A stretch of 50,100 nt of DNA, counting the filler, from Yuukianura sp. NJ FZ-2021 (Eukaryota), in NCBI GenBank assembly GCA_046563655.1. It is 2 parts of 2 records of this genome, joined end to end, with 100 filler letters (N's around TTAATTAATTAA, not from the genome) between each part and the next. Parts side by side here need not be neighbours in the genome. Positions count along the whole stretch, not along the records: positions 25,101 to 50,100 come from JAJCTO010000020.1; 1 more part is not named here. One strand, written 5' to 3'. The notes beneath the pieces are model-generated. The model did no database searches. It worked only from the letters and a program-made list of their open reading frames with translations, and was not told where the DNA came from. Positions 1,631-50,100 of the stretch are shown one piece after another (within the stretch, counting starts at the first letter, position 1; the number at the start of each line of letters is the position of its first letter). Made by a program: the position numbers and the translations under genes.

Positions 1631-1640
1631 GGAAATTCCC
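1631..1640 (-). promoter_or_regulatory. Candidate NF-kB/Rel site upstream of the Toll-like receptor
   Basis: GGAAATTCCC = GGGAATTTCC on the minus strand, a consensus kB site. GATAAG/CTTATC motifs at about 1438-1487 and an Inr-like TCAGT at 1519. Confidence 0.45.
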
Positions 1641-1732
1641 GTAACTCAATTGTTAGTTACTATCTTAATCCAAAGTATAGGTTCGTGGGGAATTTTGTTT
1701 GGGAAATGAACCTCCCAACAAATTGGCCAAGG

Positions 1733-4700: not shown

Positions 4701-5180
4701 GAGGGAACCGGAAAATTAATGGGTGACGGGCGACACGAGTTGGCTTTCGACATGGACGCAGCCAGTACATGCTCTTCAACTGCCAGTCTGGGCCTAGGAA
4801 GCGCCGTAAACGAAACTCTGCGGGTCTGTCTCCATCTACGTGACTTCCAAGTAGGAGCACCCATTTCTGAAAATATTGTCGAATGTGTTGACAAGTCTAG
4901 GAAAGTATTGATTGTAATTTCCAAAAGTTACTTGGAGTCACAGTGGTGTCTATTTGAAATGAACCTGGCTTACCATCGACTCGTAGAAGGTCGAAGGTCA
5001 TCCATTGTTCTGATTTTACTGGAGAGTATCCCGTGCAGAAAGAGAACTAAAGTGCTGAGCCACCTCATGAAGTCCAGAACGTACCTGGAGTGGCCAGCCA
5101 ACGCTACGGGAGCACTGGAAAAACGGGTCTTCTGGAAAAGACTTAAAGTGGCGCTGAAAACCGATGCGGAGGAAGACTGA
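1733..5180 (+). CDS. Toll-like receptor (single cysteine cluster, Toll-9/vertebrate type), about 1087 aa; exons 1733-2789 and 2974-5180
   Basis: Signal peptide MKWTQILFLLGLGVG, many LxxLxLxxN LRRs, one juxtamembrane LRRCT (NQFQCDLGVC...C...C), TM IVISIGTVCFLMVIIGSLYVA and TIR (YDVFISYS, LHLRDFQVG, SQWCLFE, YLEWP, FWKRL). Intron 2790-2973 joins the two ORFs in frame. Alternative ATG at 1706. Confidence 0.93.
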
Positions 5181-25000: not shown

Positions 25001-25100
25001 NNNNNNNNNNNNNNNNNNNNNNNNNNNNNNNNNNNNNNNNNNNNTTAATTAATTAANNNNNNNNNNNNNNNNNNNNNNNNNNNNNNNNNNNNNNNNNNNN
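25001..25100. other. Artificial gap/linker: N44-TTAATTAATTAA-N44
   Basis: Symmetric 100-nt spacer whose core puts a stop codon in all six frames. Confidence 0.95.
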
Positions 25101-28100: not shown

Positions 28101-31100
28101 CCTTATATCCCTTCAACGATGATTCTGGGGTCAGATGTTAGATGAAAAATTTCTTTAAATTTATTTTACATACACTGGTTTCAAAAAACCGTGTGTAATT
28201 ATAAAATGTCAATGTATAACTAACAAGTCCGTATAGCGTAAAAGTTGAAAATTCTTCAAAAGCCTTATATCCCTTCCACGATGGTTCTGCGTCAGATGTT
28301 AGGTGAAAAATTGCTTTACACTGGTTTCAAAAAACCGTGTAAAAATCATAAAATGTCAATGTATTACTACCAAGTCTCTATAGCGTAAAAGTTGAAAATT
28401 CTTCAAAGGCTTTACATCCATTCCACGATGATTCTGCGTCAGATGTTAGGTGAAAAATTGCTTTACACTGGTTTCAAAAAACAGTGTGAAAATCATAAAA
28501 TGTCAATGTATAACTAGCAAGTCCGTATAGCGTAAAAGTTGAAAATTCTTCGAAAGCCATATATCCCTTCCACCATGATTCTGCGTCAGATGCTACATGA
28601 CAAATTGCTTTACGTTGGTTTCAAAAAACCGTATGAAAATCATAAAATGTCAATGTATTACTACCAAGTCCCTATAGCGTAAAAGTTGAAAATTCTTCAA
28701 AAGCCTTATATCACTTCCACGATGATTCTGCGTCAGATGTTATGTGAAAAATTGCTTTACACTGGTTTCAAAAAACCGTGCAAAAATCATAAACTGTCAA
28801 TGTATTACTACCAAGTCCCTATAGCGTAAAAGTTGAAAACTCTTCAAAGGCCTTATATCCCTTCGACGATGATTCTGCGTCAGATGTTAGGTGACAAATT
28901 GCTTTAAATTTATTTTACATACACTGGTTTCAAAAAACCGTGTGTAATTATAAAATGTCAATGTATAACTAGCAAGTCCGTATAGCGTAAAAGTTGAAAA
29001 TTCTTCGAAAGCCATATATCCCTTCCACCATGATTCTGCGTCAGATGCTACATGACAAATTGCTTTACGTTGGTTTCAAAAAACCGTATGAAAATCATAA
29101 AATGTCAATGTATTACTACCAAGTCCCTATAGCGTAAAAGTTGAAAATTCTTCAAAAGCCTTATATCCCTTCCACGATGATTCTGCGTCAGATGTTATGT
29201 GAAAAACTGCTTTACACTGGTTTCAAAAAACCGTGCAAAAATCATAAACTGTCAATGTATAACTAACAAGTCCGTATAGCGTAAAAGTTGAAAATTCTTC
29301 AAAAGCCTTATATCCCTTCCACGATGGTTCTGCGTCAGATGTTAGGTGAAAAATTGCTTTACACTGGTTTCAAAAAACCGTGTAAAAATCATAAAATGTC
29401 AATGTATTACTACCAAGTCTCTATAGCGTAAAAGTTGAAAATTCTTCAAAGGCTTTACATCCATTCCACGATGATTCTGCGTCAGATGTTAGGTGAAAAA
29501 TTGCTTTACACTGGTTTCAAAAAACAGTGTGAAAATCATAAAATGTCAATGTATAACTAGCAAGTCCGTATAGCGTAAAAGTTGAAAATTCTTCGAAAGC
29601 CATATATCCCTTCCACCATGATTCTGCGTCAGATGCTACATGACAAATTGCTTTACGTTGGTTTCAAAAAACCGTATGAAAATCATAAAATGTCAATGTA
29701 TTACTACCAAGTCCCTATAGCGTAAAAGTTGAAAATTCTTCAAAAGCCTTATATCACTTCCACGATGATTCTGCGTCAGATGTTATGTGAAAAATTGCTT
29801 TACACTGGTTTCAAAAAACCGTGCAAAAATCATAAACTGTCAATGTATTACTACCAAGTCCCTATAGCGTAAAAGTTGAAAACTCTTCAAAGGCTTTATA
29901 TCCCTTCGACGATGATTCTGCGTCAGATGTTAGGTGACAAATTGCTTTAAATTTATTTTACATACACTGGTTTCAAAAAACCGTGTGTAATTATAAAATG
30001 TCAATGTATAACTAGCAAGTCCGTATAGCGTAAAAGTTGAAAATTCTTCGAAAGCCATATATCCCTTCCACCATGATTCTGCGTCAGATGCTACATGACA
30101 AATTGCTTTACGTTGGTTTCAAAAAACCGTATGAAAATCATAAAATGTCAATGTATTACTACCAAGTCCCTATAGCGTAAAAGTTGAAAATTCTTCAAAA
30201 GCCTTATATCCCTTCCACGATGATTCTGCGTCAGATGTTATGTGAAAAACTGCTTTACACTGGTTTCAAAAAACCGTGCAAAAATCATAAACTGTCAATG
30301 TATAACTAACAAGTCCGTATAGCGTAAAAGTTGAAAATTCTTCAAAAGCCTTATATCCCTTCCACGATGGTTCTGCGTCAGATGTTAGGTGAAAAATTGC
30401 TTTACACTGGTTTCAAAAAACCGTGTAAAAATCATAAAATGTCAATGTATTACTACCAAGTCTCTATAGCGTAAAAGTTGAAAATTCTTCAAAGGCTTTA
30501 CATCCATTCCACGATGATTCTGCGTCAGATGTTAGGTGAAAAATTGCTTTACACTGGTTTCAAAAAACAGTGTGAAAATCATAAAATGTCAATGTATAAC
30601 TAGCAAGTCCGTATAGCGTAAAAGTTGAAAATTCTTCGAAAGCCATATATCCCTTCCACCATGATTCTGCGTCAGATGCTACATGACAAATTGCTTTACG
30701 TTGGTTTCAAAAAACCGTATGAAAATCATAAAATGTCAATGTATTACTACCAAGTCCCTATAGCGTAAAAGTTGAAAATTCTTCAAAAGCCTTATATCAC
30801 TTCCACGATGATTCTGCGTCAGATGTTATGTGAAAAATTGCTTTACACTGGTTTCAAAAAACCGTGCAAAAATCATAAACTGTCAATGTATTACTACCAA
30901 GTCCCTATAGCGTAAAAGTTGAAAACTCTTCAAAGGCTTTATATCCCTTCGACGATGATTCTGCGTCAGATGTTAGGTGACAAATTGCTTTAAATTTATT
31001 TTACATACACTGGTTTCAAAAAACCGTGTGTAATTATAAAATGTCAATGTATAACTAGCAAGTCCGTATAGCGTAAAAGTTGAAAATTCTTCGAAAGCCA

Positions 31101-34100
31101 TATATCCCTTCCACCATGATTCTGCGTCAGATGCTACATGACAAATTGCTTTACGTTGGTTTCAAAAAACCGTATGAAAATCATAAAATGTCAATGTATT
31201 ACTACCAAGTCCCTATAGCGTAAAAGTTGAAAATTCTTCAAAAGCCTTATATCCCTTCCACGATGATTCTGCGTCAGATGTTATGTGAAAAACTGCTTTA
31301 CACTGGTTTCAAAAAACCGTGCAAAAATCATAAACTGTCAATGTATAACTAACAAGTCCGTATAGCGTAAAAGTTGAAAATTCTTCAAAAGCCTTATATC
31401 CCTTCCACGATGGTTCTGCGTCAGATGTTAGGTGAAAAATTGCTTTACACTGGTTTCAAAAAGCCGTGTAAAAATCATAAAATGTCAATGTATTACTACC
31501 AAGTCTCTATAGCGTAAAAGTTGAAAATTCTTCAAAGGCTTTACATCCATTCCACGATGATTCTGCGTCAGATGTTAGGTGAAAAATTGCTTTACACTGG
31601 TTTCAAAAAACAGTGTGAAAATCATAAAATGTCAATGTATAACTAGCAAGTCCGTATAGCGTAAAAGTTGAAAATTCTTCGAAAGCCATATATCCCTTCC
31701 ACCATGATTCTGCGTCAGATGCTACATGACAAATTGCTTTACGTTGGTTTCAAAAAACCGTATGAAAATCATAAAATGTCAATGTATTACTACCAAGTCC
31801 CTATAGCGTAAAAGTTGAAAATTCTTCAAAAGCCTTATATCACTTCCACGATGATTCTGCGTCAGATGTTATGTGAAAAATTGCTTTACACTGGTTTCAA
31901 AAAACCGTGCAAAAATCATAAACTGTCAATGTATTACTACCAAGTCCCTATAGCGTAAAAGTTGAAAACTCTTCAAAGGCTTTATATCCCTTCGACGATG
32001 ATTCTGCGTCAGATGTTAGGTGACAAATTGCTTTAAATTTATTTTACATACACTGGTTTCAAAAAACCGTGTGTAATTATAAAATGTCAATATATAACTA
32101 GCAAGTCCGTATAGCGTAAAAGTTGAAAATTTTTCAAAAGCCTTATATCCCTTCCACGATGATTCTGCGTCAGATGTTATGTGAAAAATTGCTTTACACT
32201 GGTTTCAAAAAACCGTGCAAAAATCATAAACTGTCAATGTATAACTAACAAGTCCGTATAGCGTAAAAGTTGAAAATTCTTCAAAAGCCTTATATCCCTT
32301 CCACGATGGTTCTGCGTCAGATGTTAGGTGAAAAATTGCTTTACACTGGTTTCAAAAAACCGTGTAAAAATCATAAAATGTCAATGTATTACTACCAAGT
32401 CTCTATAGCGTAAAAGTTGAAAATTCTTCAAAGGCTTTACATCCATTCCACGATGATTCTGCGTCAGATGTTAGGTGAAAAATTGCTTTACACTGGTTTC
32501 AAAAAACAGTGTGAAAATCATAAAATGTCAATGTATAACTAGCAAGTCCGTATAGCGTAAAAGTTGAAAATTCTTCGAAAGCCATATATCCCTTCCACCA
32601 TGATTCTGCGTCAGATGCTACATGACAAATTGCTTTACGTTGGTTTCAAAAAACCGTATGAAAATCATAAAATGTCAATGTATTACTACCAAGTCCCTAT
32701 AGCGTAAAAGTTGAAAATTCTTCAAAAGCCTTATATCCCTTCCACGATGATTCTGCGTCAGATGCTACATGACAAAATGCTTTACGTTGGTTTCAAAAAA
32801 CCGTATGAAAATCATAAAATGTCAATGTATTACTACCAAGTCCGTATAGCGTAAAAGTTGAAAATTCTTCAAAAGCCTTATATCCCTTCTACGATGGTTC
32901 TGCGTCAGATGTTAGGTGAAAAATTGCTTTGCACTGGTATCAAAAAACCGTGTGAAAATCATAAAACGGCAATGTATTACTACCAAGTCTCTATAGCGTA
33001 AAAGTTGAAAATTCTTCAAAGGCCTTATATCCCTTCAACGATGATTCTGGGGTCAGATGTTAGGTGAAAAATTTCTTTAAATTTATTTTACATACACTGG
33101 TTTCAAAAAACCGTGTGTAATTATAAAATGTCAATGTATAACTAACAAGTCCGTATAGCGTAAAAGTTGAAAATTCTTCAAAAGCCTTATATCCCTTCCA
33201 CGATGGTTCTGCGTCAGATGTTAGGTGAAAAATTGCTTTACACTGGTTTCAAAAAACCGTGTAAAAATCATAAAGGTCAATGTATTACTACCAAGTCTCT
33301 ATAGCGTAAAAGTTGAAAATTCTTCAAAGGCCTTACATCCATTCCACGATGATTCTGCGTCAGATGTTAGGTGAAAAATTGCTTTACACTGGTTTCAAAA
33401 AACAGTGTGAAAATCATAAAATGTCAATGTATAACTAGCAAGTCCGTATAGCGTAAAAGTTGAAAATTCTTCGAAAGCCATATATCCCTTCCACCATGAT
33501 TCTGCGTCAGATGCTACATGACAAATTGCTTTACGTTGGTTTCACAAAACCGTATGAAAATCATAAAATGTCAATGTATTACTACCAAGTCCCTATAGCG
33601 TAAAAGTTGAAAATTCTTCAAAAGCCTTATATCCCTTCCACGATGATTCTGCGTCAAATGTTATGTGAAAAATTGCTTTACACTGGTTTCAAAAAACCGT
33701 GCAAAAATCATAAACTGTCAATGTATTACTACCAAGTCCCTATAGCGTAAAAGTTGAAAATTCTTCAAAGGCCTTATATCCCTTCGACGATGATTCCGAG
33801 TCAGATGTTAGGTGACAAATTGCTTTAAATTTATTTTACATACACTGGTTTCAAAAAACCGTGTGTAATTATAAAATGTCAATGTATAACGAGCAAGTCC
33901 GTATAGCGTAAAAGTTGAAAATTCTTCAAAAGCCTTATATCCCTTCCACGATGGTTCTGCGTCAGATGTTATGTGAAAAATTGCTTTACACTGGTTTCAA
34001 AAAACCGTGCAAAAATCATAAACTGTCAATGTATTACTACCAAGTCCCTATAGCGTAAAAGTTGAAAATTCTTCAAAGGCCTTATATCCCTTCGACGATG

Positions 34101-37100
34101 ATTCTGCGTCAGATCTTAGGTGACAAATTGCTTTAAATTTATTTTACATACACTGGTTTCAAAAAACCGTGTGTAATTATAAAATGTCAATGTATAACTA
34201 GCAAGTCCTTATAGCGTAAAAGTTGAAAATTCTTCGAAAGCCATATATCCCTTCCACCATGATTCTGCGTCAGATGCTACATGACAAATTGCTTTACGTT
34301 GGTTTCAAAAAACCGTATGAAAATCATAAAATGTCAATGTATTACTACCAAGTCCCTATAGCGTAAAAGTTGAAAATTCTTCAAAAGCCTTATATCCCTT
34401 CCACGATGATTCTGCGTCAGATGTTATGTGAAAAATTGCTTTACACTGGTTTCAAAAAACCGTGCAAAAATCATAAACTGTCAATGTATAACTAACAAGT
34501 CCGTATAGCGTAAAAGTTGAAAATTCTTCAAAAGCCTTATATCCCTTCCACGATGGTTCTGCGTCAGATGTTAGGTGAAAAATTGCTTTACACTGGTTTC
34601 AAAAAACCGTGTAAAAATTATAAAATGTCAATGTATTACTACCAAGCCTCTATAGCGTAAAAGTTGAAAATTCTTCAAAGGCTTTACATCCATTCCACGA
34701 TGATTCTGCGTCAGATGTTATGTGAAAAACTGCTTTACACTGGTTTCAAAAAACCGTGCAAAAATCATAAACTGTCAATGTATAACTAACAAGTCCGTAT
34801 AGCGTAAAAGTTGAAAATTCTTCAAAAGCCTTATATCCCTTCCACGATGGTTCTGCGTCAGATGTTAGGTGAAAAATTGCTTTACACTGGTTTCAAAAAA
34901 CCGTGTAAAAATCATAAAATGTCAATGTATTACTACCAAGCCTCTATAGCGTAAAAGTTGAAAATTCTTCAAAGGCCTTACATCCATTCCACGATGATTC
35001 TGCGTCAGATGTTATGTGAAAAACTGCTTTACACTGGTTTCAAAAAACCGTGCAAAAATCATAAACTGTCAATGTATAACTAACAAGTCCGTATAGCGTA
35101 AAAGTTGAAAATTCTTCAAAAGCCTTATATCCCTTCCACGATGGTTCTGCGTCAGATGTTAGGTGAAAAATTGCTTTACACTGGTTTCAAAAAACCGTGT
35201 AAAAATCATAAAATGTCAATGTATTACTACCAAGTCTCTATAGCGTAAAAGTTGAAAATTCTTCAAAGGCTTTACATCCATTCCACGATGATTCTGCGTC
35301 AGATGTTAGGTGAAAAATTGCTTTACACTGGTTTCAAAAAACAGTGTGAAAATCATAAAATGTCAATGTATAACTAGCAAGTCCGTATAGCGTAAAAGTT
35401 GAAAATTCTTCGAAAGCCATATATCCCTTCCACCATGATTCTGCGTCAGATGCTACATGACAAATTGCTTTACGTTGGTTTCAAAAAACCGTATGAAAAT
35501 CATAAAATGTCAATGTATTACTACCAAGTCCCTATAGCGTAAAAGTTGAAAATTCTTCAAAAGCCTTATATCCCTTCCACGATGATTCTGCGTCAGATGC
35601 TACATGACAAAATGCTTTACGTTGGTTTCAAAAAACCGTGTGAAAATCATAAAACGGCAATGTATTACTACCAAGTCTCTATAGCGTAAAAGTTGAAAAT
35701 TCTTCAAAGGCCTTATATCCCTTCAACGATGATTCTGGGGTCAGATGTTAGGTGAAAAATTTCTTTAAATTTATTTTACATACACTGGTTTCAAAAAACC
35801 GTGTGTAATTATAAAATGTCAATGTATAACTAACAAGTCCGTATAGCGTAAAAGTTGAAAATTCTTCAAAAGCCTTATATCCCTTCCACGATGGTTCTGC
35901 GTCAGATGTTAGGTGAAAAATTGCTTTACACTGGTTTCAAAAAACCGTGTAAAAATCATAAAGGTCAATGTATTACTACCAAGTCTCTATAGCGTAAAAG
36001 TTGAAAATTCTTCAAAGGCCTTACATCCATTCCACGATGATTCTGCGTCAGATGTTAGGTGAAAAATTGCTTTACACTGGTTTCAAAAAACAGTGTGAAA
36101 ATCATAAAATGTCAATGTATAACTAGCAAGTCCGTATAGCGTAAAAGTTGAAAATTCTTCGAAAGCCATATATCCCTTCTACCATGATTCTGCGTCAGAT
36201 GCTACATGACAAATTGCTTTACGTTGGTTTCAAAAAACCGTATGAAAATCATAAAATGTCAATGTATTACTACCAAGTCCATATAGCGTAAAAGTTGAAA
36301 ATTCTTCAAAAGCCTTATATCCCTTCCACGATGATTCTGCGTCAAATGTTATGTGAAAAATTGCTTTACACTGGTTTCAAAAAACCGTGCAAAAATCATA
36401 AACTGTCAATGTATTACTACCAAGTCCCTATAGCGTAAAAGTTGAAAATTCTTCAAAGGCCTTATATCCCTTCGACGATGATTCCGAGTCAGATGTTAGG
36501 TGACAAATTGCTTTAAATTTATTTTACATACACTGGTTTCAAAAAACCGTGTGTAATTATAAAATGTCAATGTATAACGAGCAAGTCCGTATAGCGTAAA
36601 AGTTGAAAATTCTTCAAAAGCCTTATATCCCTTCCACGATGGTTCTGCGTCAGATGTTATGTGAAAAATTGCTTTACACTGGTTTCAAAAAACCGTGCAA
36701 AAATCATAAACTGTCAATGTATTACTACCAAGTCCCTATAGCGTAAAAGTTGAAAATTCTTCAAAGGCCTTATATCCCTTCGACGATGATTCTGCGTCAG
36801 ATGTTAGGTGACAAATTGCTTTAAATTTATTTTACATACACTGGTTTCAAAAAACCGTGTGTAATTATAAAATGTCAATGTATAACTAGCAAGTCCTTAT
36901 AGCGTAAAAGTTGAAAATTCTTCGAAAGCCATATATCCCTTCCACCATGATTCTGCGTCAGATGCTACATGACAAATTGCTTTACGTTGGTTTCAAAAAA
37001 CCGTATGAAAATCATAAAATGTCAATGTATTACTACCAAGTCCCTATAGCGTAAAAGTTGAAAATTCTTCAAAAGCCTTATATCCCTTCCACGATGATTC

Positions 37101-40100
37101 TGCGTCAGATGTTATGTGAAAAATTGCTTTACACTGGTTTCAAAAAACCGTGCAAAAATCATAAACTGTCAATGTATAACTAACAAGTCCGTATAGCGTA
37201 AAAGTTGAAAATTCTTCAAAAGCCTTATATCCCTTCCACGATGGTTCTGCGTCAGATGTTAGGTGAAAAATTGCTTTACACTGGTTTCAAAAAACCGTGT
37301 AAAAATTATAAAATGTCAATGTATTACTACCAAGCCTCTATAGCGTAAAAGTTGAAAATTCTTCAAAGGCCTTACATCCATTCCACGATGATTCTGCGTC
37401 AGATGTTAGGTGAAAAATTGCTTTACACTGGTTTCAAAAAACAGTGTGAAAATCATAAAATGTCAATGTATAACTAGCAAGTCCGTATAGCGTAAAAGTT
37501 GAAAATTCTTCGAAAGCCATATATCCCTTCTACCATGATTCTGCGTCAGATGCTACATGACAAATTGCTTTACGTTGGTTTCAAAAAACCGTATGAAAAT
37601 CATAAAATGTCAATGTATTACTACCAAGTCCATATAGCGTAAAAGTTGAAAATTCTTCAAAAGCCTTATATCCCTTCCACGATGATTCTGCGTCAAATGT
37701 TATGTGAAAAATTGCTTTGCACTGGTATCAAAAAACCGTGTGAAAATCATAAAACGGCAATGTATTACTACCAAGTCTCTATAGCGTAAAAGTTGAAAAT
37801 TCTTCAAAGGCCTTATATCCCTTCGACGATGATTCCGAGTCAGATGTTAGGTGACAAATTGCTTTAAATTTATTTTACATACACTGGTTTCAAAAAACCG
37901 TGTGTAATTATAAAATGTCAATGTATAACGAGCAAGTCCGTATAGCGTAAAAGTTGAAAATTCTTCAAAAGCCTTATATCCCTTCCACGATGGTTCTGCG
38001 TCAGATGTTATGTGAAAAATTGCTTTACACTGGTTTCAAAAAACCGTGCAAAAATCATAAACTGTCAATGTATTACTACCAAGTCCCTATAGCGTAAAAG
38101 TTGAAAATTCTTCAAAGGCCTTATATCCCTTCGACGATGATTCTGCGTCAGATGTTAGGTGACAAATTGCTTTAAATTTATTTTACATACACTGGTTTCA
38201 AAAAACCGTGTGTAATTATAAAATGTCAATGTATAACTAGCAAGTCCTTATAGCGTAAAAGTTGAAAATTCTTCGAAAGCCATATATCCCTTCCACCATG
38301 ATTCTGCGTCAGATGCTACATGACAAATTGCTTTACGTTGGTTTCAAAAAACCGTATGAAAATCATAAAATGTCAATGTATTACTACCAAGTCCCTATAG
38401 CGTAAAAGTTGAAAATTCTTCAAAAGCCTTATATCCCTTCCACGATGATTCTGCGTCAGATGTTATGTGAAAAATTGCTTTACACTGGTTTCAAAAAACC
38501 GTGCAAAAATCATAAACTGTCAATGTATAACTAACAAGTCCGTATAGCGTAAAAGTTGAAAATTCTTCAAAAGCCTTATATCCCTTCCACGATGGTTCTG
38601 CGTCAGATGTTAGGTGAAAAATTGCTTTACACTGGTTTCAAAAAACCGTGTAAAAATTATAAAATGTCAATGTATTACTACCAAGCCTCTATAGCGTAAA
38701 AGTTGAAAATTCTTCAAAGGCCTTACATCCATTCCACGATGATTCTGCGTCAGATGTTAGGTGAAAAATTGCTTTACACTGGTTTCAAAAAACAGTGTGA
38801 AAATCATAAAATGTCAATGTATAACTAGCAAGTCCGTATAGCGTAAAAGTTGAAAATTCTTCGAAAGCCATATATCCCTTCTACCATGATTCTGCGTCAG
38901 ATGCTACATGACAAATTGCTTTACGTTGGTTTCAAAAAACCGTATGAAAATCATAAAATGTCAATGTATTACTACCAAGTCCATATAGCGTAAAAGTTGA
39001 AAATTCTTCAAAAGCCTTATATCCCTTCCACGATGATTCTGCGTCAAATGTTATGTGAAAAATTGCTTTGCACTGGTATCAAAAAACCGTGTGAAAATCA
39101 TAAAACGGCAATGTATTACTACCAAGTCTCTATAGCGTAAAAGTTGAAAATTCTTCAAAGGCCTTATATCCCTTCGACGATGATTCCGAGTCAGATGTTA
39201 GGTGACAAATTGCTTTAAATTTATTTTACATACACTGGTTTCAAAAAACCGTGTGTAATTATAAAATGTCAATGTATAACGAGCAAGTCCGTATAGCGTA
39301 AAAGTTGAAAATTCTTCAAAAGCCTTATATCCCTTCCACGATGGTTCTGCGTCAGATGTTATGTGAAAAATTGCTTTACACTGGTTTCAAAAAACCGTGC
39401 AAAAATCATAAACTGTCAATGTATTACTACCAAGTCCCTATAGCGTAAAAGTTGAAAATTCTTCAAAGGCCTTATATCCCTTCGACGATGATTCTGCGTC
39501 AGATGTTAGGTGACAAATTGCTTTAAATTTATTTTACATACACTGGTTTCAAAAAACCGTGTGTAATTATAAAATGTCAATGTATAACTAGCAAGTCCTT
39601 ATAGCGTAAAAGTTGAAAATTCTTCGAAAGCCATATATCCCTTCCACCATGATTCTGCGTCAGATGCTACATGACAAATTGCTTTACGTTGGTTTCAAAA
39701 AACCGTATGAAAATCATAAAATGTCAATGTATTACTACCAAGTCCCTATAGCGTAAAAGTTGAAAATTCTTCAAAAGCCTTATATCCCTTCCACGATGAT
39801 TCTGCGTCAGATGTTATGTGAAAAATTGCTTTACACTGGTTTCAAAAAACCGTGCAAAAATCATAAACTGTCAATGTATAACTAACAAGTCCGTATAGCG
39901 TAAAAGTTGAAAATTCTTCAAAAGCCTTATATCCCTTCCACGATGGTTCTGCGTCAGATGTTAGGTGAAAAATTGCTTTACACTGGTTTCAAAAAACCGT
40001 GTAAAAATTATAAAATGTCAATGTATTACTACCAAGCCTCTATAGCGTAAAAGTTGAAAATTCTTCAAAGGCTTTACATCCATTCCACGATGATTCTGCG

Positions 40101-40514
40101 TCAGATGTTAGGTGAAAAATTGCTTTACACTGGTTTCAAAAAACAGTGTGAAAATCATAAAATGTCAATGTATAACTAGCAAGTCCGTATAGCGTAAAAG
40201 TTGAAAATTCTTCGAAAGCCATATATCCCTTCCACCATGATTCTGCGTCAGACGCTACATGACAAATTGCTTTACGTTGGTTTCAAAAAACCGTATGAAA
40301 ATCATAAAATGTCAATGTATTACTTCCAAGTCCCTATAGCGTAAAAGTTGAAAATTCTTCAAAAGCCTTATATCCCTTCCACGATGATTCTGCGTCAGAT
40401 GCTACATGACAAAATGCTTTACGTTGGTTTCAAAAAACCGTATGAAAATCATAAAATGTCAATGTATTACTACCAAGTCCCTATAGCGTAAAAGTTGAAA
40501 ATTCTTCAAAAGCC
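25101..40514. repeat. AT-rich satellite array, 147-bp monomer (161-162-bp variant), about 103 monomers, with higher-order repeats
   Basis: TTGAAAA anchor at 25101, 25248, 25395 and onward. The long variant carries an AATTTATTTTACATA insert and recurs at about 749, 1043 and 308+1043-bp spacings. Confidence 0.97.
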
Positions 40515-41079
40515 TGAGGGGTTGCAATGCCCCGACGACTGGCACACAGGCCACTCGAACAATAAAGTGGGGCAGAGGTCACGACAATGGCTACAAATGG
40601 ACAATGAACTTTATTTACAGTAATTAGGATAGAGTTTACGGTCTAATGAGGGCCAAATGTTGAATTGATGAAGTGTAGAGGTTGGTGGGGCTCGGTCCTG
40701 TGCAGGATTGACCAGGTACTGGTCCGGTGGGGCTTGTAGAGGTCAGTCCGGGTCACAACAGTAGTTCCGGCGTGGTCCAGTGGCCAATCCAAGATGGAGG
40801 AGACGTGGAGAGAGAGACGGGACAAGATCCGGGCAGAGTGACGAGTAGGGAGAGACTGTGTGGAGGAAGAAGTGGACAGTGGTGATGATGATGATGACGG
40901 GATGCGTGTCCAAGTGATGGATGATGCAACTTCCCGTGCATCTGATTGGTGGGCGAGTGGTTTTGGTGGTGAGGACGTGGAGTTGTTGTTGTGCTGCTGC
41001 TGGAAGGACGAAGGGGGAGAAGAAGGGGGAAAGGGAACCGAAGTGGCTATGGGAGGATTTGTGGGGAATAACCCCCACA
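40515..41079 (-). repeat. Putative 3' LTR, about 565 bp
   Basis: On the minus strand it starts TGTGGGGGTT and ends AACCCCTCA (TG...CA with short imperfect terminal IR). AATAAA at 40615-40610. Only a weak purine tract (GGGGA) precedes it, so the inner boundary is unconfirmed without the second LTR. Confidence 0.6.
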
Positions 41080-41131: not shown

Positions 41132-42325
41132 TTATTTTGGTGGAGCTGGAGGATCTCGGCGTTTTGGGGAATTCTTCCTCGGCGGAGGTGGAGCATTGGC
41201 CGAGTTCAGGGCCCACCAACGAGCACGTCTCTGCTGCCGATTCGGAGCTGGTGGATTAGGTGGGACAGGGGGAAAACGTCCTTGTACAGGAGCTGGGGGA
41301 GCTGAAGCTGCTGGAGCTGAAACTACTGGAGCTGGGGGAGGGGTTAAAATTGGAGTTGGTGGGGAGTTGAAAGTGAAGGTAACAGAAGTTGCTGAATTCG
41401 GGAGAAGGGTGTAGTAGGGGAAATATCCGGGGGGAATTGATGAAAATGGGAATTGTGAAGCGGCCGAAGTGACAGGAACGGTAATTGAAGTTGAAGTGGA
41501 CGGAATTGGTGAAGTTGAAGAAGTGGCTGGAGAAACTGGACGTGAATTTGGAGAAAGTGGCCGAATCTGGGGAGAAGCTGAGCGATTTCGGGGAGGAGCT
41601 GGACGAGCGTTGTATGGAGAAGGCCGATTGGAACGGAATTGAGCTCGAACAGGGGGAACAGATTTTGATGAAGTGCTGGGTCCAGGGTTTTGGGGGTTTT
41701 TAGGGGTTCTTGGGGACAAGGAAACATTTGACATTTTGCGTGTCAAAGCTGTAGGGGAGCTGGATCGCGAACGACCAACTGGGGGTTGTTTTGGGGGTCC
41801 GTTTGGAAACTGCAAATCCAGAAGCGAGGGAATCTTCGCAGATCCATGACGCTGAGCCTGTAGCTTCGATTTTGGGGCTGGGTCACGAGGACGACGAAAC
41901 GTGGCAGAATCCTGGGACTTGGGGGGAACAACCACGACGACCGAAGCAAGTCTTGGGCGTGGCGCTGGAGGAGGAGCCGAAACCATGTCCTGGAGTGACT
42001 TTTGGGGGGAATTCGGTTGGAAGCTGCTAGAGCTTGGGGAAAACAACTGCCGATTGAGCTTTTTCGGGGATTTTGGAGGGGAAGCAGCAGCAGTGGGCAT
42101 ATCCCAGTCGTCATCCGGAATCGGTGCAATGGCAGGCGTAGAAATTGGAGCAGCAATGACGGTAGGAGACGGAGACGAAGACGAAGATGAAGAAGACCGA
42201 GAAACAGCATCATTTTGAGGAGGAGAGTTCAAAAGGTCATCTTCTGCAGCCAAATCGATCTCGGCAATGCCCTCAGAGGCGTCATCTCCTTCGTCCATCA
42301 TGTCATCATCGTGAGGGGGGTCCAT
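41132..42325 (-). CDS. Retrotransposon accessory ORF3 (397 aa, acidic N-terminus, Pro/Ser-rich, not Env-like)
   Basis: Uninterrupted ATG-initiated ORF between the integrase stop and the 3' LTR, directly preceded by the splice acceptor CTGATGCTGTTCTTTTATATATTTTTAG. Confidence 0.7.
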   Translation of the reverse strand: MDPPHDDDMMDEGDDASEGIAEIDLAAEDDLLNSPPQNDAVSRSSSSSSSSPSPTVIAAPISTPAIAPIPDDDWDMPTAAASPPKSPKKLNRQLFSPSSSSFQPNSPQKSLQDMVSAPPPAPRPRLASVVVVVPPKSQDSATFRRPRDPAPKSKLQAQRHGSAKIPSLLDLQFPNGPPKQPPVGRSRSSSPTALTRKMSNVSLSPRTPKNPQNPGPSTSSKSVPPVRAQFRSNRPSPYNARPAPPRNRSASPQIRPLSPNSRPVSPATSSTSPIPSTSTSITVPVTSAASQFPFSSIPPGYFPYYTLLPNSATSVTFTFNSPPTPILTPPPAPVVSAPAASAPPAPVQGRFPPVPPNPPAPNRQQRRARWWALNSANAPPPPRKNSPKRRDPPAPPK

Positions 42326-42369: not shown

Positions 42370-45300
42370 TCAGCGCTTCTTTGGCTTCGCAAGGCGGGAA
42401 ATGCAAGACAGAGCTTTAGTGTAAGCCGCGCGTTTCGGACGACTAGAAATCGGGGTTTTTACGCTGGCAGGGGCGCAAAATACGGGGATTTCACTCGCAA
42501 CGGGATGCAGGGTATCCTGGGCGAGTAAAATTGGTGGAATTAGGATTTCTGGGTCACGGCTTTGATTTTGGTCATTTAAGTCAACATTAGGGGGGTCAGA
42601 ATTTTGGTTTGGCGTTACGGGAAGCGTAAGAGGGTCATTTTGCTCAGTCGGAATTGGCAATTTTGGTAATGTAGAGGACAAATCAGGGTCAGACACTGGA
42701 GGAGGGACAAAATCGTTATCAGACGACTCAGAGGAACTACTGTCTGCATCAGACGTGTCAGAGACACGCTGATGATAAGGTTTAAGGCGCTGAACGTTCA
42801 CGACAGTCTCGTGAGGCTGCCGAGGGGGAACAGAAGTAATTCGAACAGTGCCGTTATGGAGGACGTCAATGACTTTGTAAGGGCCAATCCACTTCTTCGT
42901 AAATTTGCCGACACGACCCTTTTTCCGCTGAAAGTTCCTGAGCAGAACTTTCATACCAACGACATAAGTCGGAAAACGGATCTGTAATTGGGCCTTAACT
43001 CTGAGAAGCTGCTGCTCACGGGATAGCTCGTGGGCTACGTTATTCGCAACAAATAATCGGTCCAGGGCATCGTCGGGCTCTAAATATTCCCGGGGAAGGG
43101 GAACAGCCTGTCAACCGGCAAAACCGGCTCCCTACCAAAGACCAGAAAATAAGGAGAAAAATTAGTGACACGATGTACTGAACAATTAATGGAAAATACC
43201 GCCCTGGGGAGATGTAGATCCCAATCCTTGTGGTTTTCACTTACGAATTTGGCGATTACTGACTTTACCGTGCCGTTATGTCGTTCACAGACGCCGTTAG
43301 ACTTGGGATGATAGGAAGTCGTGGATCTGTGTTCAATGGCGTGGAGGGAAAGGAAATCTTCAAATTCGTCGGAAAGGAAAACCGTACCACGGTCTGACAG
43401 AATGATTTTGGGAATTCCGTGGCGAAAAAGGACGTGTTTGTTAAGTACTTTAATCGCTTGAGCAGAATCTGCTGCGGGAACTGGCCAGGCTTCTACGTAA
43501 CGGGTATGGAGATCAATTACTGTCAGAATGTACTTGTTACGTCTCGCTGTGACGGGGAATGGGCCTAAGTAGTCTAGGGCAATGGTGTGGAATGGAATGG
43601 CGGGAACGTCAAGACCAGCGCTATTTGGCGGGAGAGCAAAATTCCGTCTATTATGGATCTGACACAAGTGGCACGACGTGACAAATTTCACCACATCGCG
43701 ATACATCCGGGGCCAATAAAACCTGGAGCGTAGAAGATGCCAAGTCTTGTGTAAGCCGAGGTGGCTAAGGGAGTCGTTATGTACGGATTCCATGGACGAT
43801 TTTCGGAGGGATTTCGGGAGACAAAGACGCCAGAGATTTCCAAATTCCGAGTAGTTCATCCGGTACAAAATGCCATCACGAAGACTGTACTCTCTCAATT
43901 TCTTGGGTTCGGGCAAATTATGGGAAGTACCAGATTGTTCTGCTTTCAAATACTCAATGACAGGAAGCCATTCTGGCTCTTTAAGCTGGAGATCTTTCAG
44001 TTTTGCATCTCTAACTCTTCGTGGGGATTCAGGGGAAACCGCTAAGGCCAGAAGATGATGTTCAATGGCCAAATGGTCTGTGTCAGAGGGGGCTGGGTCA
44101 ACTGGGTTACGGGAAAGGGGATCAGCATCGGTGTGAACACGACCACTCTTATGAATTACGGTAAAATCATAAGGTTGGAGGGCTAAAGACCAACGGGAAA
44201 TTTGGCCATAGGGGTCTTTAAATTTTAGCATGTCACAAAGGGAATGGTGGTCAGTGACAACTTTAAAATGACGGCCGTATAAATACGGTCGAAATTTCTC
44301 TACAGCCCAAACAAAAGCCTTCATTTCCAATTGGGGGGTTCCAAATTTTGGATTCGGAGGGGGAAACCGCTCTGGAAGCATAAGCAACCACTCTCTCTTT
44401 TCCGTCCTGAATTTGGCAAAGGGTCGCTCCAAAACCGAGTCCAGACGCATCACAATGGACGGACGTTTCGGCTTCTTCATCAGGGAACGCAAGGACAGGG
44501 GGAGATGTTAATTTGTCTTTTAGCGTCTGAAACGCTGTTTCGGCTTCGGGGTTCCAATGGAAAGGGGTACCACGTTTCGCAGCAACGAGAAGATGAAGGG
44601 GACGGGCAATTTCGGCAAAACCCTCGATAAATCGGCGATAGTAACTGCAAAGACCAATGAAGGAACGGACACCTCTAACAGTCGTGGGAGTAGGGAATTC
44701 ACGAACTGCTTTTGTTTTGTTGGGGTCAACTGCAATTCCATTTCTGGAAACAATATGGCCAAGGAATTTTAGGGAATCTTCGCCAAAGTTACACTTTTTG
44801 GGTTTAAGACTCAGACCAGCTCTTCTAAGGGCACAAAAAATTTGGGCTAAGTGATCCAAATGCTCTTCAAAAGTTCGGGAGTAGCAAACCACATCGTCTA
44901 AATAAACGAGTGCTATGGACCACTTCAAACGACCTAAGACATTGTCAATTAGGCGTTGCCAAGTAGCGGGGGCATTGGTCAAACCAAAGGGCATTACAAC
45001 GAACTCATATTGTCCGTCGGGGGTCACAAAACTGGTCTTTTCTCGGTCCTCAGGCTCCACTTCAACCTGGTAATACGCTTGGTCACAATCCATGGAGGAA
45101 AAATACTTGGCGCCATTAAGTCTGTCGAGGGTATCATCAATTCGGGGAAGGGGGTAAGAATCTTTCCGAGTCACTGCGTTGACCTTACGAAAGTCAACAC
45201 AAAACCGCCAACTTTCGTCGGGCTTTTTGACCAGAAGGACTGGGGAACACCAAGGGCTATCGCTCGGAGTAATAGCATTGAGATTCAAAAGACGCTCGAC

Positions 45301-47438
45301 TTGGTTTTGAATTTCCCTCCGCTCTGTAAATCCGGTTCTGTGGGGATGGGAAGCAATCGGTTTAGCAGAACCTGTGTCGATTTTGTGGGTGGTTAGGTGA
45401 GTACGGCCAAGGGTAGCAGGATCAAAATTGAAAACATCCAAATTCGCTACAAGAAAATCTTGCATAATTTGGCGCTGTTCAGGGGTTAGGGAATTTGAAA
45501 TCTGGAACGCCTCGATCCTCTTTTGCAGTTTCAGTGTTGCTATTTCAGCGTCATCATTAACCGAAAGTCCTAAGATCTCGTGCGCTGGGAGGGAAGATTG
45601 GGAGGATTTAGAGCTAACATGGTCGAATTCATCAAGGTCACAGAGTACGGAAGACTCTGCGAAGGGTTCGAAGGTGCCAATAGAGATGTTTTGAAGAAGT
45701 TTCACAGGGCGGTCACTCAAATTCCACAAGAACGTAACTCCGCTGCCATCTTTAAGCGTAGAAATGGAATTCCCAATGGCAATATGTTTTGCGTGTTGGA
45801 GCTCACGACGAGGGGAAACCAAAATGTCTCCGGTGAAAGGTAAATCAGTTTTTACACTGACTCGTTTCATTGTTCTTGGGTTAATGAGGATTGACCTGGC
45901 CAGTCTCAGGCACGGAGGGGAGTAGAATTTTGAGATAAATTCGAATTGCTCACGAAGGACGCTTCGGAGTCAAGTAGGGAAGGGGAATTTGAAGTATCTG
46001 GGGACTGAGATGAATTCAGAGCCATGTCAATAGCTAGAGGGTTTTGGTTTTTGGGACTGGCTGTACATTTGGGAGGGATCGACTTTGGTTCTGCTTCCGA
46101 AGACTTTGGAATACTGGGACTATCAGAAACTTCTTCAGTTTCTGACAAAGTTAATTTGTTAAGGACAGGGACTTGGGATTTTGGAATACAAACATACTCA
46201 TTTCTGAGGTCAGTACACGGAAGTTCACCTTTTACAAGGCGCTCATTCGCGGGATCCAAGAGAAAATGTTGGGAACGGAGGAAATCTGAACCCAAAACGA
46301 TCTCATTTGAAAGGTGCTGGAAAATGTAAAAGGGGTATTGGAAGGAGACGCCAGCAATTGAGAAAGTGATCATTGTGGTTTGGGGGGAACCACAACGAAC
46401 GTAAGAACCAAAAGAAAGTTTGACTCGAACAGGTTGAACATCAACCGCTTGGGAAACAATATTGGGGAACCTCCTTAGAAAATCAGGGTGGACACAACAA
46501 AGAGAAGCACCTGTATCACACAGGACTCGAAGAGTCGTAGAACCAAAGACAACATCGGTATGGAAAGTAGAATGGGGGGTGGAGTCAATTCCGGAAATGA
46601 ACTTTGCAGCTGAGATTCCCGAAGGAAACTCGGAATCGTGACTTGGGGACTTAGGTGGGGAATCAAAATCGAAAGAAGTGGGATCTGGAACTTTGGAATT
46701 TGCAGCTGAGAACTCAGGGGCGGAATAATTTACCCAGTCAGCGACTCGGCTTACATTGGAGGGGCTAATGCCAAATTTGGAAGTGAGAGAAACGGCTAGT
46801 GGGTTGAGTTGAGTAGGGCCACACACAAAAGCGGAAGGGCAAGGTTCAGAAGGGCCAACACAAACAGAAACAAACTTTGGTACTGCAGCGGTAGGTTGAG
46901 TAGGGGGAAGAACAGAAGTAGTAGTAGCGGCGGCGGTTGTAGTTGTAGTTGTAGGTCCCAGAAGGGAAGTAGGATTAGTAGCGGCGGAGTTACGAAGAGA
47001 AGTAGGGACTGTAGGGACTGCAGCGTCAGAACAAAAGTTTGGGAAGGTTGTAGTAGCCTCCCCAACGACCAAAGGTGAAATAGGCTGGGGATTTGATTTA
47101 GGACAAGTTCGGTGGTGGTCAAAAAGAGCTTGTAGTTTGGAAAGAAACTCTTCTGGAATAATGGGAATTTTAGAATTGTGCTTCCTGCCAAAAGCTGAAC
47201 AATTCTTGTGGGTTTGAAATTTAGGTTGTTTGATTTTTCGGGATTTGGGACGTGTTGGACAAACCCTGGGTGGGGCTTGTACCTTAATTTGAGAGACTGG
47301 ATTGGGTGGTAATAGAAGCTGACGTCCCTGCAACGGCAGCTCTATTGGTTTTCCGGAGGTTTTGGAAGTACGGCGGATGCGATGTTTGTAAGAAGATCCG
47401 TCATTGTAGAGAAAGCAGACATCATCGAAGGAACCCAT
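42370..47438 (-). CDS. pol: pol polyprotein (PR, RT, RNase H, integrase with GPY/F tail), split by about 3 single-base frameshifts
   Basis: PR LCDTGAS. RT WRFCVDFRKVN, YPLPRIDD, MPFGLTNAPATWQR, YLDD. RNase H HCDASG, VVAYASR, VVTDHHSL. IN H-H-C-C, LDYLGP, ILSDRG, NGVCER, WIGPYKV. Breaks near 45915, 44345 and 43090. Confidence 0.92.
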
Positions 47439-48740
47439 TGGTTTTCCTGAGCTGGTGGTCCAGTTTGTGGATTTTGAAATGACTGCGGCTGATGTGGGCT
47501 GGTTTGTAGTGGTCTTGAATCAACGTTAGGGAAGGGACGTTGAACAGCTTGGCTATAACTAGCCAGCTGCTGGGGTTGTTGATTATTAGGATTGTTTCGG
47601 GGGCGCAGTGGTCTACAGTTGCGGGTCAAAGGGTCAATGCCTTGGCTCCACCACCATTTGTGACAGTATCGAACAATATGTCCAATATTGTTGCAGTAAT
47701 CGCAAATTGGCTTTCCATCATCAGAACGACGATTCTGTTGTGGAGGGAAAGGGCGATCGGGCTGGGGAGCAGTTTGAACTGCTGGTTGGGTTTGAGCAGG
47801 AGGGCGTTGGTACTGCTGGACTTGGTAGGGAACAGTTGTAGGGAAATTAGCATTTGGAATGGCGGGAGCCATTTGAGTTTCAAGTCCACGAAGAGAAACC
47901 ATTGGATCGGAACTTCCTTTAGAGCGGGTATGGACATCAGCAACTCGTCTCAGGATCTTCTGGAATTCGGAAGGGGTCTGGATATTCTGCATGACAAATG
48001 CTTGTTCCAGCTCGTGTGGGAGACCACGAACTAATTGTTCAACCTTCCGGGATTCTGGCATCATGGGATCAAGTTTGGAAAGAATTTGGATTTTCTCAGC
48101 TACATACTGATCAATGTTGTCCCCTATTTTGAACCGCAGAGCCTTTACTCTGAGCTTTGAAAACCTCCCGTCGCTCTTTAAGGGAAAAATGGGAAACAAA
48201 TTCTTTTTCAAATTTGCTCCAAATGTTTTCTGCGTCTGCGTAGGGAACTTGCAACTGCTCACGGAAATGGGGCCAAATGGAAACAAACCAGGCACTAGCA
48301 ACACCCGTCAACACTCTGTCAAAATGACTAAGCGCTCCGAATGCACCAAAGCCTGATCCGCCCAAGTCGTATTTGTATCGGGCCATGTATTCAGCAGGAT
48401 CGCTCATTCCATCGTACTGTCGAATGTGTTTGAATATCTTGATGTCCTGCTTGCTTGGGTCGGGTGGGGGGAAATTTCGAAAAATTTGGGGAATGGAAGC
48501 TTGTACAGCTGCAGGGCTAGCAATAGTACTTGCTGGGGTGGGGGGTGTAGGAACGAATTGGGCTTGTGTTGGGGCAAAATGAACTGCAGCAGGTTGACCT
48601 TGAGTTGACAAATTGAGAGTAGGAGGAAGAGTCTGGGTAGCAGTATCCATGGGAATTGTAGATTGCGACAAGATATGTTGAGGGGACTGTCCATCTTGTT
48701 GGGGGGTAGAGGCAAATGGTCTCGCAAAGTACGACAACAT
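47342..48740 (-). CDS. gag: gag (capsid plus CCHC zinc knuckle), one frameshift near 48180-48200
   Basis: IRQYDGMSDPAEYM, VLTGVASAWF, WSKFEKEFVSHF, GDNIDQYVAEK...LVRGLP and CDYCNNIGHIVRYC. Confidence 0.85.
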
Positions 48741-48752
48741 TTTTGAAATCGC

Positions 48753-49167
48753 TTAGAGACGGCGTCTCGGGTCTACACGGGGTTCTGACTCGAACACTAA
48801 CCAGCCTTGGGCGTTAGCAAATGCTTTGAACAACCACCGGTAAATTGGACCGAAGAAATCCCAGTGGTAGTATAGGACTCGTACAATTAGGGCTAGGAAG
48901 TAGTAAGTCTCGGTGCCAATGAGGACCCGGAAGAAGTAACGATAAGTCCTCGGAGCTTGCCGTAAGTAGAAGACTGGGATAATGTGGAGGGCGATATAGT
49001 CAGAAACAACCGAAAATGTCGCTATTAGACAGGAATAAGTAATGTGGGAGAGGAATGTTGCAATGAGATACACAGTTTCAAGGACCAAAAGGATGAAGCA
49101 GATCCCGAAAGAATGCTGCTAAGCCGAGAAATACGACTGTCTTTAGAAAGGACCAAAAAATTTGCAT
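48753..49167 (-). CDS. Hydrophobic ORF0 upstream of gag (111 aa open from TTG 49088; about 137 aa from ATG 49167 if one frameshift is corrected)
   Basis: Long apolar stretches, a basic C-terminus (PRRRL) and a stop 12 nt before the gag ATG. Confidence 0.45.
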
Positions 49168-50100
49168 TTGCAGGGACTTCAAAATAACTTAAATGCTTTT
49201 CAGCACTTAAGCTTTACTCAAGAAAATGTAGGAGAAGAGAGACCAAAAAGAAAACGACAATCCGTTGAACAATGACACCAATCGTAGCAATCACAACGAT
49301 CAAGACAATGTAAAGGAATGGGGAGTACATCGCTTGCTTTTCTGGACTGGGCAGGGACTTTCTATAAATACTTCAAAAAATGTATTAAATATGAACTTAT
49401 TTTGGAATATGAATATTTGTAAGCTTAAATCTAGAAAAAGAAAGAAATGGGAATTTGAAAAAAATAGGGTTTGTAGAATTAGCTACTGTCTAGGGGCTAT
49501 GATTTTACAATCAAATTCCTCCAAAACAGAACTTTAGAAAAAATAAAGAACCAATCGGACAAGAAGAACGAGAAAAACGAGTCTTACGCCAACCGATGCA
49601 ATGCCAAACCACATTAAGAAACCGACGAGCCAAAGAAACCACTCAATAATTTGCATTACTGAGCTTAATTTTCAGAAAAAGAACCGAAAAATTGGAATGG
49701 GAACTTCAATAGGGGAGGGCACGACGTAAAATCGCGTTATCTGAAGAATCGGCGAAGTCAGGGGAATAGGTAGTACCTACTCACTCACTGACTAAACGCA
49801 CACCGACTTGAAAAGTTTTAAGTTTTTAGAATTTTGGGAAAATCGGGCAGGGGTTTGGGACGAAAAGCCGCTTTTAATTTTTGAAGTTTGGACGAAAATC
49901 TGAATTTAATTAATGTAAAGTTAGAACGTAACGTAATTTAGGAATTAGGAATAGTTTTTAGCCAAATTCTGGAAAATCCGACTATTCAGGGGAATGGGGG
50001 ATATCGCAGTTACGTGCGACTTGAAAAATCAGAAGAATCGGCTGACTCTGGGGATTAGGTTAGGTAGGGGTAAACAAAAATCGGAATTCTGCTAAGTGTC

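Follow-up and report, generated by a model that had tools for sequence, protein, structure and literature searches.

ORF0, a Maintained Gene for a Predicted Membrane Protein Ahead of gag in an env-less Ty3/gypsy Retrotransposon Lineage

1. Introduction

Before sORF2, retrotransposons without env were regarded as confined to their cell. sORF1 and sORF2 are reported from Drosophila elements of the MDG1 group (412, mdg1, Stalker, Blood and Tabor), and sORF2/FAST-like frames from insect Metaviridae more widely (PMC11952523 and PMC13486581). The first of these papers finds sORF2 together with capsids where invasive protrusions enter the oocyte, while assays of the cell-fusion, leakage or conductance kind are reported to have been negative for sORF2 itself (PMC11952523). 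According to the second, sORF2 and Env never occur together in drosophilids (PMC13486581). The locus described here raises a related question, namely whether a small hydrophobic reading frame directly ahead of gag in another gypsy element is a gene at all and, if so, what kind of protein it encodes and what that protein might do for the element. The frame lies in a stretch of 50,100 nucleotides (the window) from Yuukianura sp. NJ FZ-2021. A preliminary description of this stretch had compared the frame with the extra ORF of plant Ogre elements and with small FAST-like fusogenic ORFs of insect elements, and had suggested a non-Env route of membrane association or cell-to-cell spread.

2. The Element and Its Setting

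The final 10 kb of the window carry, on the minus strand, a Ty3/gypsy retrotransposon with Pfam domains in the order gag, protease, RT, RNase H and integrase; the PR-RT-RH-IN order, LTRs of the TG...CA type and a target-site duplication place it in Ty3/gypsy (Metaviridae). In the window copy gag, with its zinc knuckle, occupies 47342..48740 (minus strand) and is frame-broken near 48140, and pol (protease, RT, RNase H and integrase in Ty3/gypsy order, 42370..47519, minus strand) is spread over several frames, both in addition to the break in ORF0 treated below. The 3' LTR (565 bp, 40515..41079, minus strand) adjoins an array of a 147-bp satellite unit (103 copies, window 25053-40500, with an inverted junction near 25050), and the 5' LTR lies outside the window. 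Within the four families defined below (A to D), LTR pairs from one copy each are 565 bp and 100% identical in A, 486 bp and 99.6% in B, and 312 bp and 97.8% in D, from which recent movement of the lineage follows; the flanks of these LTR pairs show 4-bp target-site duplications. One family B copy, on contig C5, likewise sits within a tandem-repeat array. The closest RTs that bear organism names are chelicerate, and the closest overall are metagenome proteins (71-74% identity across the RT core).

Downstream of pol lies ORF3 (41132..42325, minus strand), a Pro/Ser-rich frame of 397 aa with an acidic start, whose own ATG stands directly 3' of a splice-acceptor-like AG. Its maximum KD19 is 0.92-1.00 (measured in a single copy from each of A, B and D), so that it contains no hydrophobic or transmembrane segment and is not Env. 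Counterparts of 410 aa and 197 aa exist in B and D, and the single C copy inspected yielded none of 90 aa or more. ORF0, with 108-137 aa, is not of the Env type (F or gB) either, which has a large ectodomain, a furin site and a C-terminal anchor. The element is without env.

3. ORF0 in the Window Copy

ORF0, a 137-codon gene for a predicted membrane protein, spans 48753..49167 on the minus strand, its stop ending at 48753, 12 nt ahead of the gag ATG (48740). It is frame-broken near 49110 in the window copy, because the frame begun by the ATG at 49167 closes there after 29 codons; the frame that ends at 48753 runs for 121 codons from stop to stop (48753-49118) and has no ATG. The earlier account of this frame was right about its distance from gag and gave its length as 111 codons, which has to be corrected. 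That a single frameshift separates it from the ATG at 49167, as had also been proposed, is borne out by the other copies: a DNA search of the same genome found seven close copies, the window copy included, and four of the six others have an uninterrupted ORF0 of 137 codons that starts at this ATG and ends at the stop ahead of gag, the remaining two being broken elsewhere. ORF0 is present in most copies, so it is not absent from the family consensus. An alignment of the window copy with the copy nearest to it, 2,998 bases long, shows 3 substitutions and 3 single-base indels.

The frameshift was also checked in public sequencing runs. Contigs from all four of these (X1-X4) disagree with the window at this point, which makes an assembly error the most likely cause of the break; the depth that differs from the window at the break is 107.4/107.4 in X1, 92.6/92.6 in X2 and 9.67/9.67 in X4, and X3 has two placements. 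It is possible that the break is a genuine lesion in a single copy, given that X1-X3 represent one sample and that contigs lose rare variants.

4. Four Families under Purifying Selection

Four of the 29 matches of a protein search were discounted: three were additional hits within broken copies, and the fourth, at E 0.4, had no gag behind it. The remaining 25 loci are distinct and fall into four families, with 7 copies in A, 5 in B, 11 in C and 2 in D. ORF0 lies directly upstream of gag in all four, at a gap of 11-18 nt in A-C and of 54-55 nt in D. It is open in 21 of the 25 genomic copies, and gag, measured from its start to the zinc knuckle and about three times longer, in 15. The protein has 137 aa in A and in B, 124 in C and 108 in D, with identities of 54% between A and B, 39-41% between either of these and C, and 25-28% to D (25-55% overall); A and D are matched at E 5e-11. 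In an RT tree A to D group together (support 94/89, not starred), with plant RTs outside the group. Their RTs are 76-98% identical, and ORF0 has diverged as rapidly as gag. Recombination between families as the cause of the near-identical RTs was rejected, since synonymous divergence in RT is high (pS 0.57-0.82), and ORF0 has been maintained in four families whose synonymous divergence is saturated. As a control, 3.5 kb upstream of 20 of the 36 weaker gag matches were fetched and held no ORF0 relative (best E 0.65); in these control loci the 1.9 kb inspected, perhaps with some host flank, contain 18-45 AUGs. One copy of another gypsy family has a 138-aa ORF with a hydrophobic start about 500 nt ahead of gag (L107:2592-3008), which is absent from its relatives L102 and L103 and unrelated to ORF0.

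Within families, pN/pS of ORF0 is 0.08, 0.05, 0.18 and 0.21. Pooled, 121 synonymous variants stand against 46 non-synonymous ones (pN/pS 0.13, p 1e-35; p-values for selection are optimistic here, the copies being related to each other). The constraint is similar to that on gag (pairwise dN/dS 0.04-0.37), and in run X4, which carries another organism label, 7 of the 8 ORF0 differences listed are synonymous. The preliminary description had itself named T-rich UTR composition, with no codon-level conservation, as an alternative source of the hydrophobicity. A chance hydrophobic frame would suit a leader of 30-41% T and the broken ORF0 of the window copy, but purifying selection acts on ORF0 in four families, and its other two frames are closed (1-8 stops) and non-hydrophobic (GRAVY -0.3 to 0.19 vs. 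0.69-0.89 in the ORF0 frame); T content peaks at codon position 2. The codon-level tests refute this explanation, and its probability is negligible. ORF0 is a real gene kept by purifying selection, with all intact sequences coming from a single genome assembly, and the proposal of a membrane-type accessory ORF ahead of gag in an env-less gypsy element gains from its being under selection and present in four families.

5. The Predicted ORF0 Protein

Two to three transmembrane segments and a basic tail had been ascribed to ORF0. One strong hydrophobic segment is present (residues 11-29, KD19 3.0), but the other two are marginal (1.7 and 1.5), and the basic tail is found in families A and B only. 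Across the four families the strongest segment begins at residue 5-11 (KD19 1.9-3.0) and is followed by two or three marginal ones (1.0-1.8), helices 2 and 3 having a family-averaged KD19 of at most 1.46. The structure model, built from an alignment of ten rows, is all-helical (2-40, 44-69, 72-100 and 107-120; pLDDT 75, pTM 0.48), and a single-sequence model of the D protein is helical too (pLDDT 62). Family D (L032, L034) has the shorter ORF0, without the last helix and tail; it also lacks the two upstream ORFs described in Section 6, and its leader is shorter, with several acceptor-like motifs. Eleven residues are invariant in the four families (M1, W5, C46, H61, P64, R69, V81, L82, E86, R96 and H101), mainly polar ones located in helices 2-3. 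In A, B and D, not in C, the marginal helix 2 has a basic patch behind it, and none follows helix 1. The hydrophobic profile, the helical model, the invariant residues and the distribution of the basic patch together make a topology likely in which a signal-anchor comes first and two paired helices, associated with the membrane or spanning it, come after. Helix 1 could be a cleaved signal peptide instead, in which case the single-TM-then-polybasic-patch layout of sORF2/FAST would partly fit. We infer that the protein is made and located at membranes. A homodimer prediction, run without an alignment, scored 0.00 and has no bearing either way.

Small hydrophobic helices rich in aromatic residues, together with invariant His, Glu and Arg within the helix pair, are what would be expected if ORF0 or one of the small upstream ORFs were viroporin-like, forming oligomeric ion-conducting or membrane-weakening pores that aid capsid release or uncoating; the upstream single-helix peptides of 38-44 aa also match the viroporin size class. 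The marginal hydrophobicity of helices 2 and 3 of ORF0 speaks against such pores, which we regard as improbable.

No homologue of ORF0 was found by word-index search of near-length proteins (with the single sequence and with the alignment), by phmmer with the single sequence against 1.84 billion representatives, in the ESM Atlas with ORF0 of A and C, or among PHROGs and PDB sequences. Viral and metagenome contigs yielded nothing with the ORF0 alignment or the gag alignment, and RT yielded nothing on viral contigs. None of the four ORF0 families has a Pfam match at E<=10, and Foldseek with the ORF0 model found no match in PDB or BFVD at E<=0.001. A Dps chain among the PDB sequences (E 0.019) was taken as a chance match, and the best VIA fold match, CsoR (Z 7.3, rmsd 5.5, 77 aligned), is at the level of a common helical arrangement. 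Since the searched libraries contain few animal repeat ORFs, these blanks do not show that ORF0 is absent elsewhere.

6. Upstream ORFs, Leader and Translation

Two further ORFs for transmembrane-type peptides precede ORF0 in families A, B and C, not in D. sORF-a (49534..49656, minus strand; 40 aa in the window, 39-44 aa among families) is hydrophobic, open in 23 of 23 A-C copies and invariant at E5, L8, W9, G12, W16 and A20, with a pooled pN/pS of 0.31 (p 1e-4). sORF-b (49214..49330, minus strand; 38 aa in the window, 38-39 aa among families) forms a single hydrophobic helix and is open in 22 of the 23; its pooled pN/pS of 0.19 comprises 0.07 in A and B and 0.88 in C, where it is unconstrained. 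Neither has a detectable relationship to ORF0. Families A and B thus have six ORFs each (a, b, ORF0, gag, pol and ORF3), and of the four-ORF architecture once proposed the extra ORF before gag and ORF3 stand, a and b having been missed. Because D keeps ORF0 alone and b is unconstrained in C, the three need not form one machine.

The leader, 2.2-2.5 kb long in copies other than the window copy, is represented in the window by its AUG-poor 3' part (49657..50100, minus strand), which continues past the window end. AUGs number 7, 4 and 4 in the leaders of A, B and C, where 300 dinucleotide shuffles of each leader average 18.2, 18.4 and 22.2 and have minima of 9-12, the start of the C leader being assumed as its LTR is unmapped; the D leader has 9 against 12.7 expected, a depletion that is not significant. 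In the last 1.9 kb of the C copy examined, the sole AUGs are the starts of a, b, ORF0 and gag. In family A a donor-like motif at ~49788, in the leader part within the window, and an acceptor-like motif at ~49430 (minus strand) flank sORF-a, with similar sites in C, not in B, and a spliced leader that skips sORF-a is possible.

Position -3 of the ORF0 AUG is C in 21 of 21 copies, a weak context by the Kozak rule, and that of the gag AUG is A in families A, C and D and C in B. ORF0 has no internal Met in any of the 19 intact A-C copies, and out-of-frame AUGs number 0-1 against 1.9-3.8 expected. The depletion of leader AUGs, the weak ORF0 context and the lack of an internal Met suggest that gag is reached by leaky scanning or reinitiation. 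The AUG-poor leader and weak ORF0 start, with the gap of 11-18 nt to gag in A-C and a signal-like helix at the ORF0 N-terminus, would also suit ORFs that mainly control Gag translation, either as peptide-dependent uORFs or with the targeting of RNA and ribosomes to the ER as the sole job of the product. Selection, however, runs along the entire ORF0, and the invariant residues lie mostly at 46-101, beyond the signal-like helix, which makes control of translation as the main function quite unlikely.

Another possibility is an N-terminal membrane anchor that is joined to a larger protein, either fused to Gag by stop readthrough in the manner of glyco-Gag or spliced to ORF3; ZAM/Beagle elements splice a short upstream exon onto env (PMC12992720). 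The spacer between ORF0 and gag, whose measured length is blurred by homopolymer errors, has 12 nt and keeps the frame, as a fusion would need, in all four intact A copies and in 3 of 5 B copies. Yet it is 11 nt and out of frame in the other two B copies, measures 14-18 nt in C with only 5 of 10 copies in frame, and contains in-frame stops in D; readthrough is therefore unlikely, and the stop codon is mainly TAA. As to splicing from ORF0 to the ORF3 acceptor, which had been put forward as a check, an insensitive scan found no donor consensus in ORF0 of any of the four families nor at the end of gag, and ORF3 has its own ATG after the acceptor. Taken as a whole, a fused or spliced anchor is very improbable.

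7. Comparison with Known Systems

The lineage shares with sORF1/sORF2 elements the combination of an env-less gypsy element and small sense ORFs between LTR and gag, and ORF0 shares with sORF2 its place as the last membrane protein before gag and its purifying selection. The MDG1 group, however, combines a nuclear sORF1 with a single-pass sORF2, whereas three hydrophobic ORFs (a, b and ORF0) are present here; ORF0 has further hydrophobic helices, and the element has a spliced-type ORF3. With 108-137 aa ORF0 is longer than the sORF2-like proteins (63-107 aa), and a and b, at 38-44 aa, are shorter, ORF0 falling inside the wider FAST range of 80-200. The myristoylation motif MGxxxS/T is found in none of ten proteins (ORF0 of A-D; a and b of A-C). 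According to PMC11952523 it is also missing from 2 of 6 MDG1 sORF2s and from some FAST proteins, and the sORF2-like entries seen in its supplement all start with MG, having been selected for MG. ORF0 has no ectodomain of about 30 residues, since in each of the four families its strongest segment already begins at residue 5-11. The likeness to FAST/sORF2 claimed earlier thus holds for a sense ORF ahead of gag in an element without env and fails in anatomy: no MGxxxS/T, no hydrophilic ectodomain before helix 1, and more than 107 aa. On this comparison ORF0 does not appear to be a member of the sORF2/FAST class and would at most work like sORF2. The same is seen with reovirus FAST proteins (PMC12945298), which share with ORF0 the 100-200 aa range, a polycistronic origin and, for ORF0 of three families, a basic patch after a hydrophobic segment, but ORF0 has neither their myristoylation and dicysteine motifs nor a hydrophilic ectodomain before the first helix.

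Ogre/Tat elements have a 5' extra ORF that, like ORF0, lies on the sense strand upstream of gag, and encodes a plant mobile domain with coiled coil or Transposase_28 (PMC4408406 and PMC6431247). The proposed likeness does not extend to the protein, since ORF0 is without any Pfam match (none to plant mobile or Transposase_28); its host is an animal, and plant RTs fall outside the RT group. The bdelloid elements Vesta4 and Vesta6c have small orphan TM ORF3s proposed as an env replacement (PMC5408684), which are, like ORF0, short orphan transmembrane ORFs in gypsy elements. They occupy the env slot after pol, however, and have 220-230 aa with a Cys-rich ectodomain, a furin site and a coiled coil, whereas ORF0 precedes gag and is half that size. 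Because sORF1/sORF2 elements and Ogre/Tat have them, extra small ORFs ahead of gag are a known kind; the ORF0 family and the cassette of three membrane ORFs were not found in the libraries and literature searched, where no multi-helix protein or triple membrane-ORF cassette ahead of gag in animal gypsy appeared (subscription journals and Repbase being outside the coverage). ORF0 is a selected membrane-protein family in the genomic slot of sORF2 that would escape the published screen for sORF2-like genes, which looked for short ORFs with both a myristoylation motif and a transmembrane helix and whose authors note that other forms are missed (PMC11952523).

8. Possible Roles of ORF0

We tentatively favour a small helical integral membrane protein that would be made from the gag-bearing RNA and, by analogy, would organise a membrane site for Gag capsids. 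ORF0 would then be an accessory gene that an env-less Ty3/gypsy lineage has maintained, and its product would have an N-terminal signal-anchor helix and a helix pair bearing the invariant polar residues C46, H61, P64, R69, E86, R96 and H101. Leaky scanning or reinitiation on that RNA would give the translation order a and b (membrane peptides of about 40 aa, families A-C), ORF0 and gag, and at the membrane site Gag capsids may gather and then leave or pass to a neighbouring cell. ORF0 would act at the step of Drosophila sORF2, namely capsid-membrane contact and possibly cell-to-cell transfer, without being a sORF2/FAST protein. In favour of this are the greater frequency of open ORF0 than of open gag, its fixed place and strong constraint in four families, the AUG-poor leader, the all-helical model, an ORF3 without a transmembrane segment, and the precedent of sORF2 in position and role (PMC11952523 and PMC13486581). 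Against it stand an anatomy unlike sORF2/FAST, a single strong hydrophobic segment that is perhaps a cleaved signal, the lack of a, b and significant AUG depletion in D, the relaxed sORF-b of C, the C at -3 of gag in family B, the low pTM from ten rows, and the origin of all intact sequences in one assembly.

It is possible, if on the unlikely side, that ORF0 (with a and b) has no role in spread and is a membrane-bound counter-defence or host-modulating protein, which would remove or block a host membrane factor, or an ER remodeller for assembly in the same cell. Vpu and the small coronavirus accessory proteins are analogues for host modulation. The gene-level evidence for such a protein is identical to that for an organiser of capsid sites; ORF0 diverges as quickly as gag among families with similar RTs, its bicistronic position precedes a structural gene, and its invariant polar residues could make a binding surface. 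Within-family pN/pS of 0.05-0.21, however, gives no sign of an arms race, and ORF0 has no known motif or Pfam match.

A bolder form of the capsid-site reading is unlikely: that the lineage has its own cell-to-cell transmission module, independent of Env and of sORF2/FAST, in which an ORF0 core and two micro-peptides, read from a polycistronic leader, would make up a new type of small transfer protein or fusogen. Such a module would be the retrotransposon counterpart of viral movement-protein blocks. Should ORF0 move capsids between cells, Env-free spread would have been solved a second time by unrelated means, and the small fusogens would gain a new class; otherwise, ORF0 would still be an undescribed retrotransposon accessory protein, and the RNA an example from Metaviridae of a leader with three to four cistrons.

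9. Further Features of the Element and the Window

Three regions of the plus strand (window 1601-5180, 11725-12890 and 14257-15776) contain what we take, from their translations, to be host genes resembling Toll-like receptor, malate synthase and exostosin. Within the element, the pol frame at 45906-47519 (minus strand) has about 300 Pro/Ser/Thr-rich codons ahead of the protease domain. Families A, B and C all keep, at the gag stop, a slippery-like A-rich run with a hairpin after it (window ~47310-47360, minus strand; L008:3300-3370, L019 and L023), with z-scores between -1.8 and -2.3, and the two together are a probable gag-pol frameshift signal.
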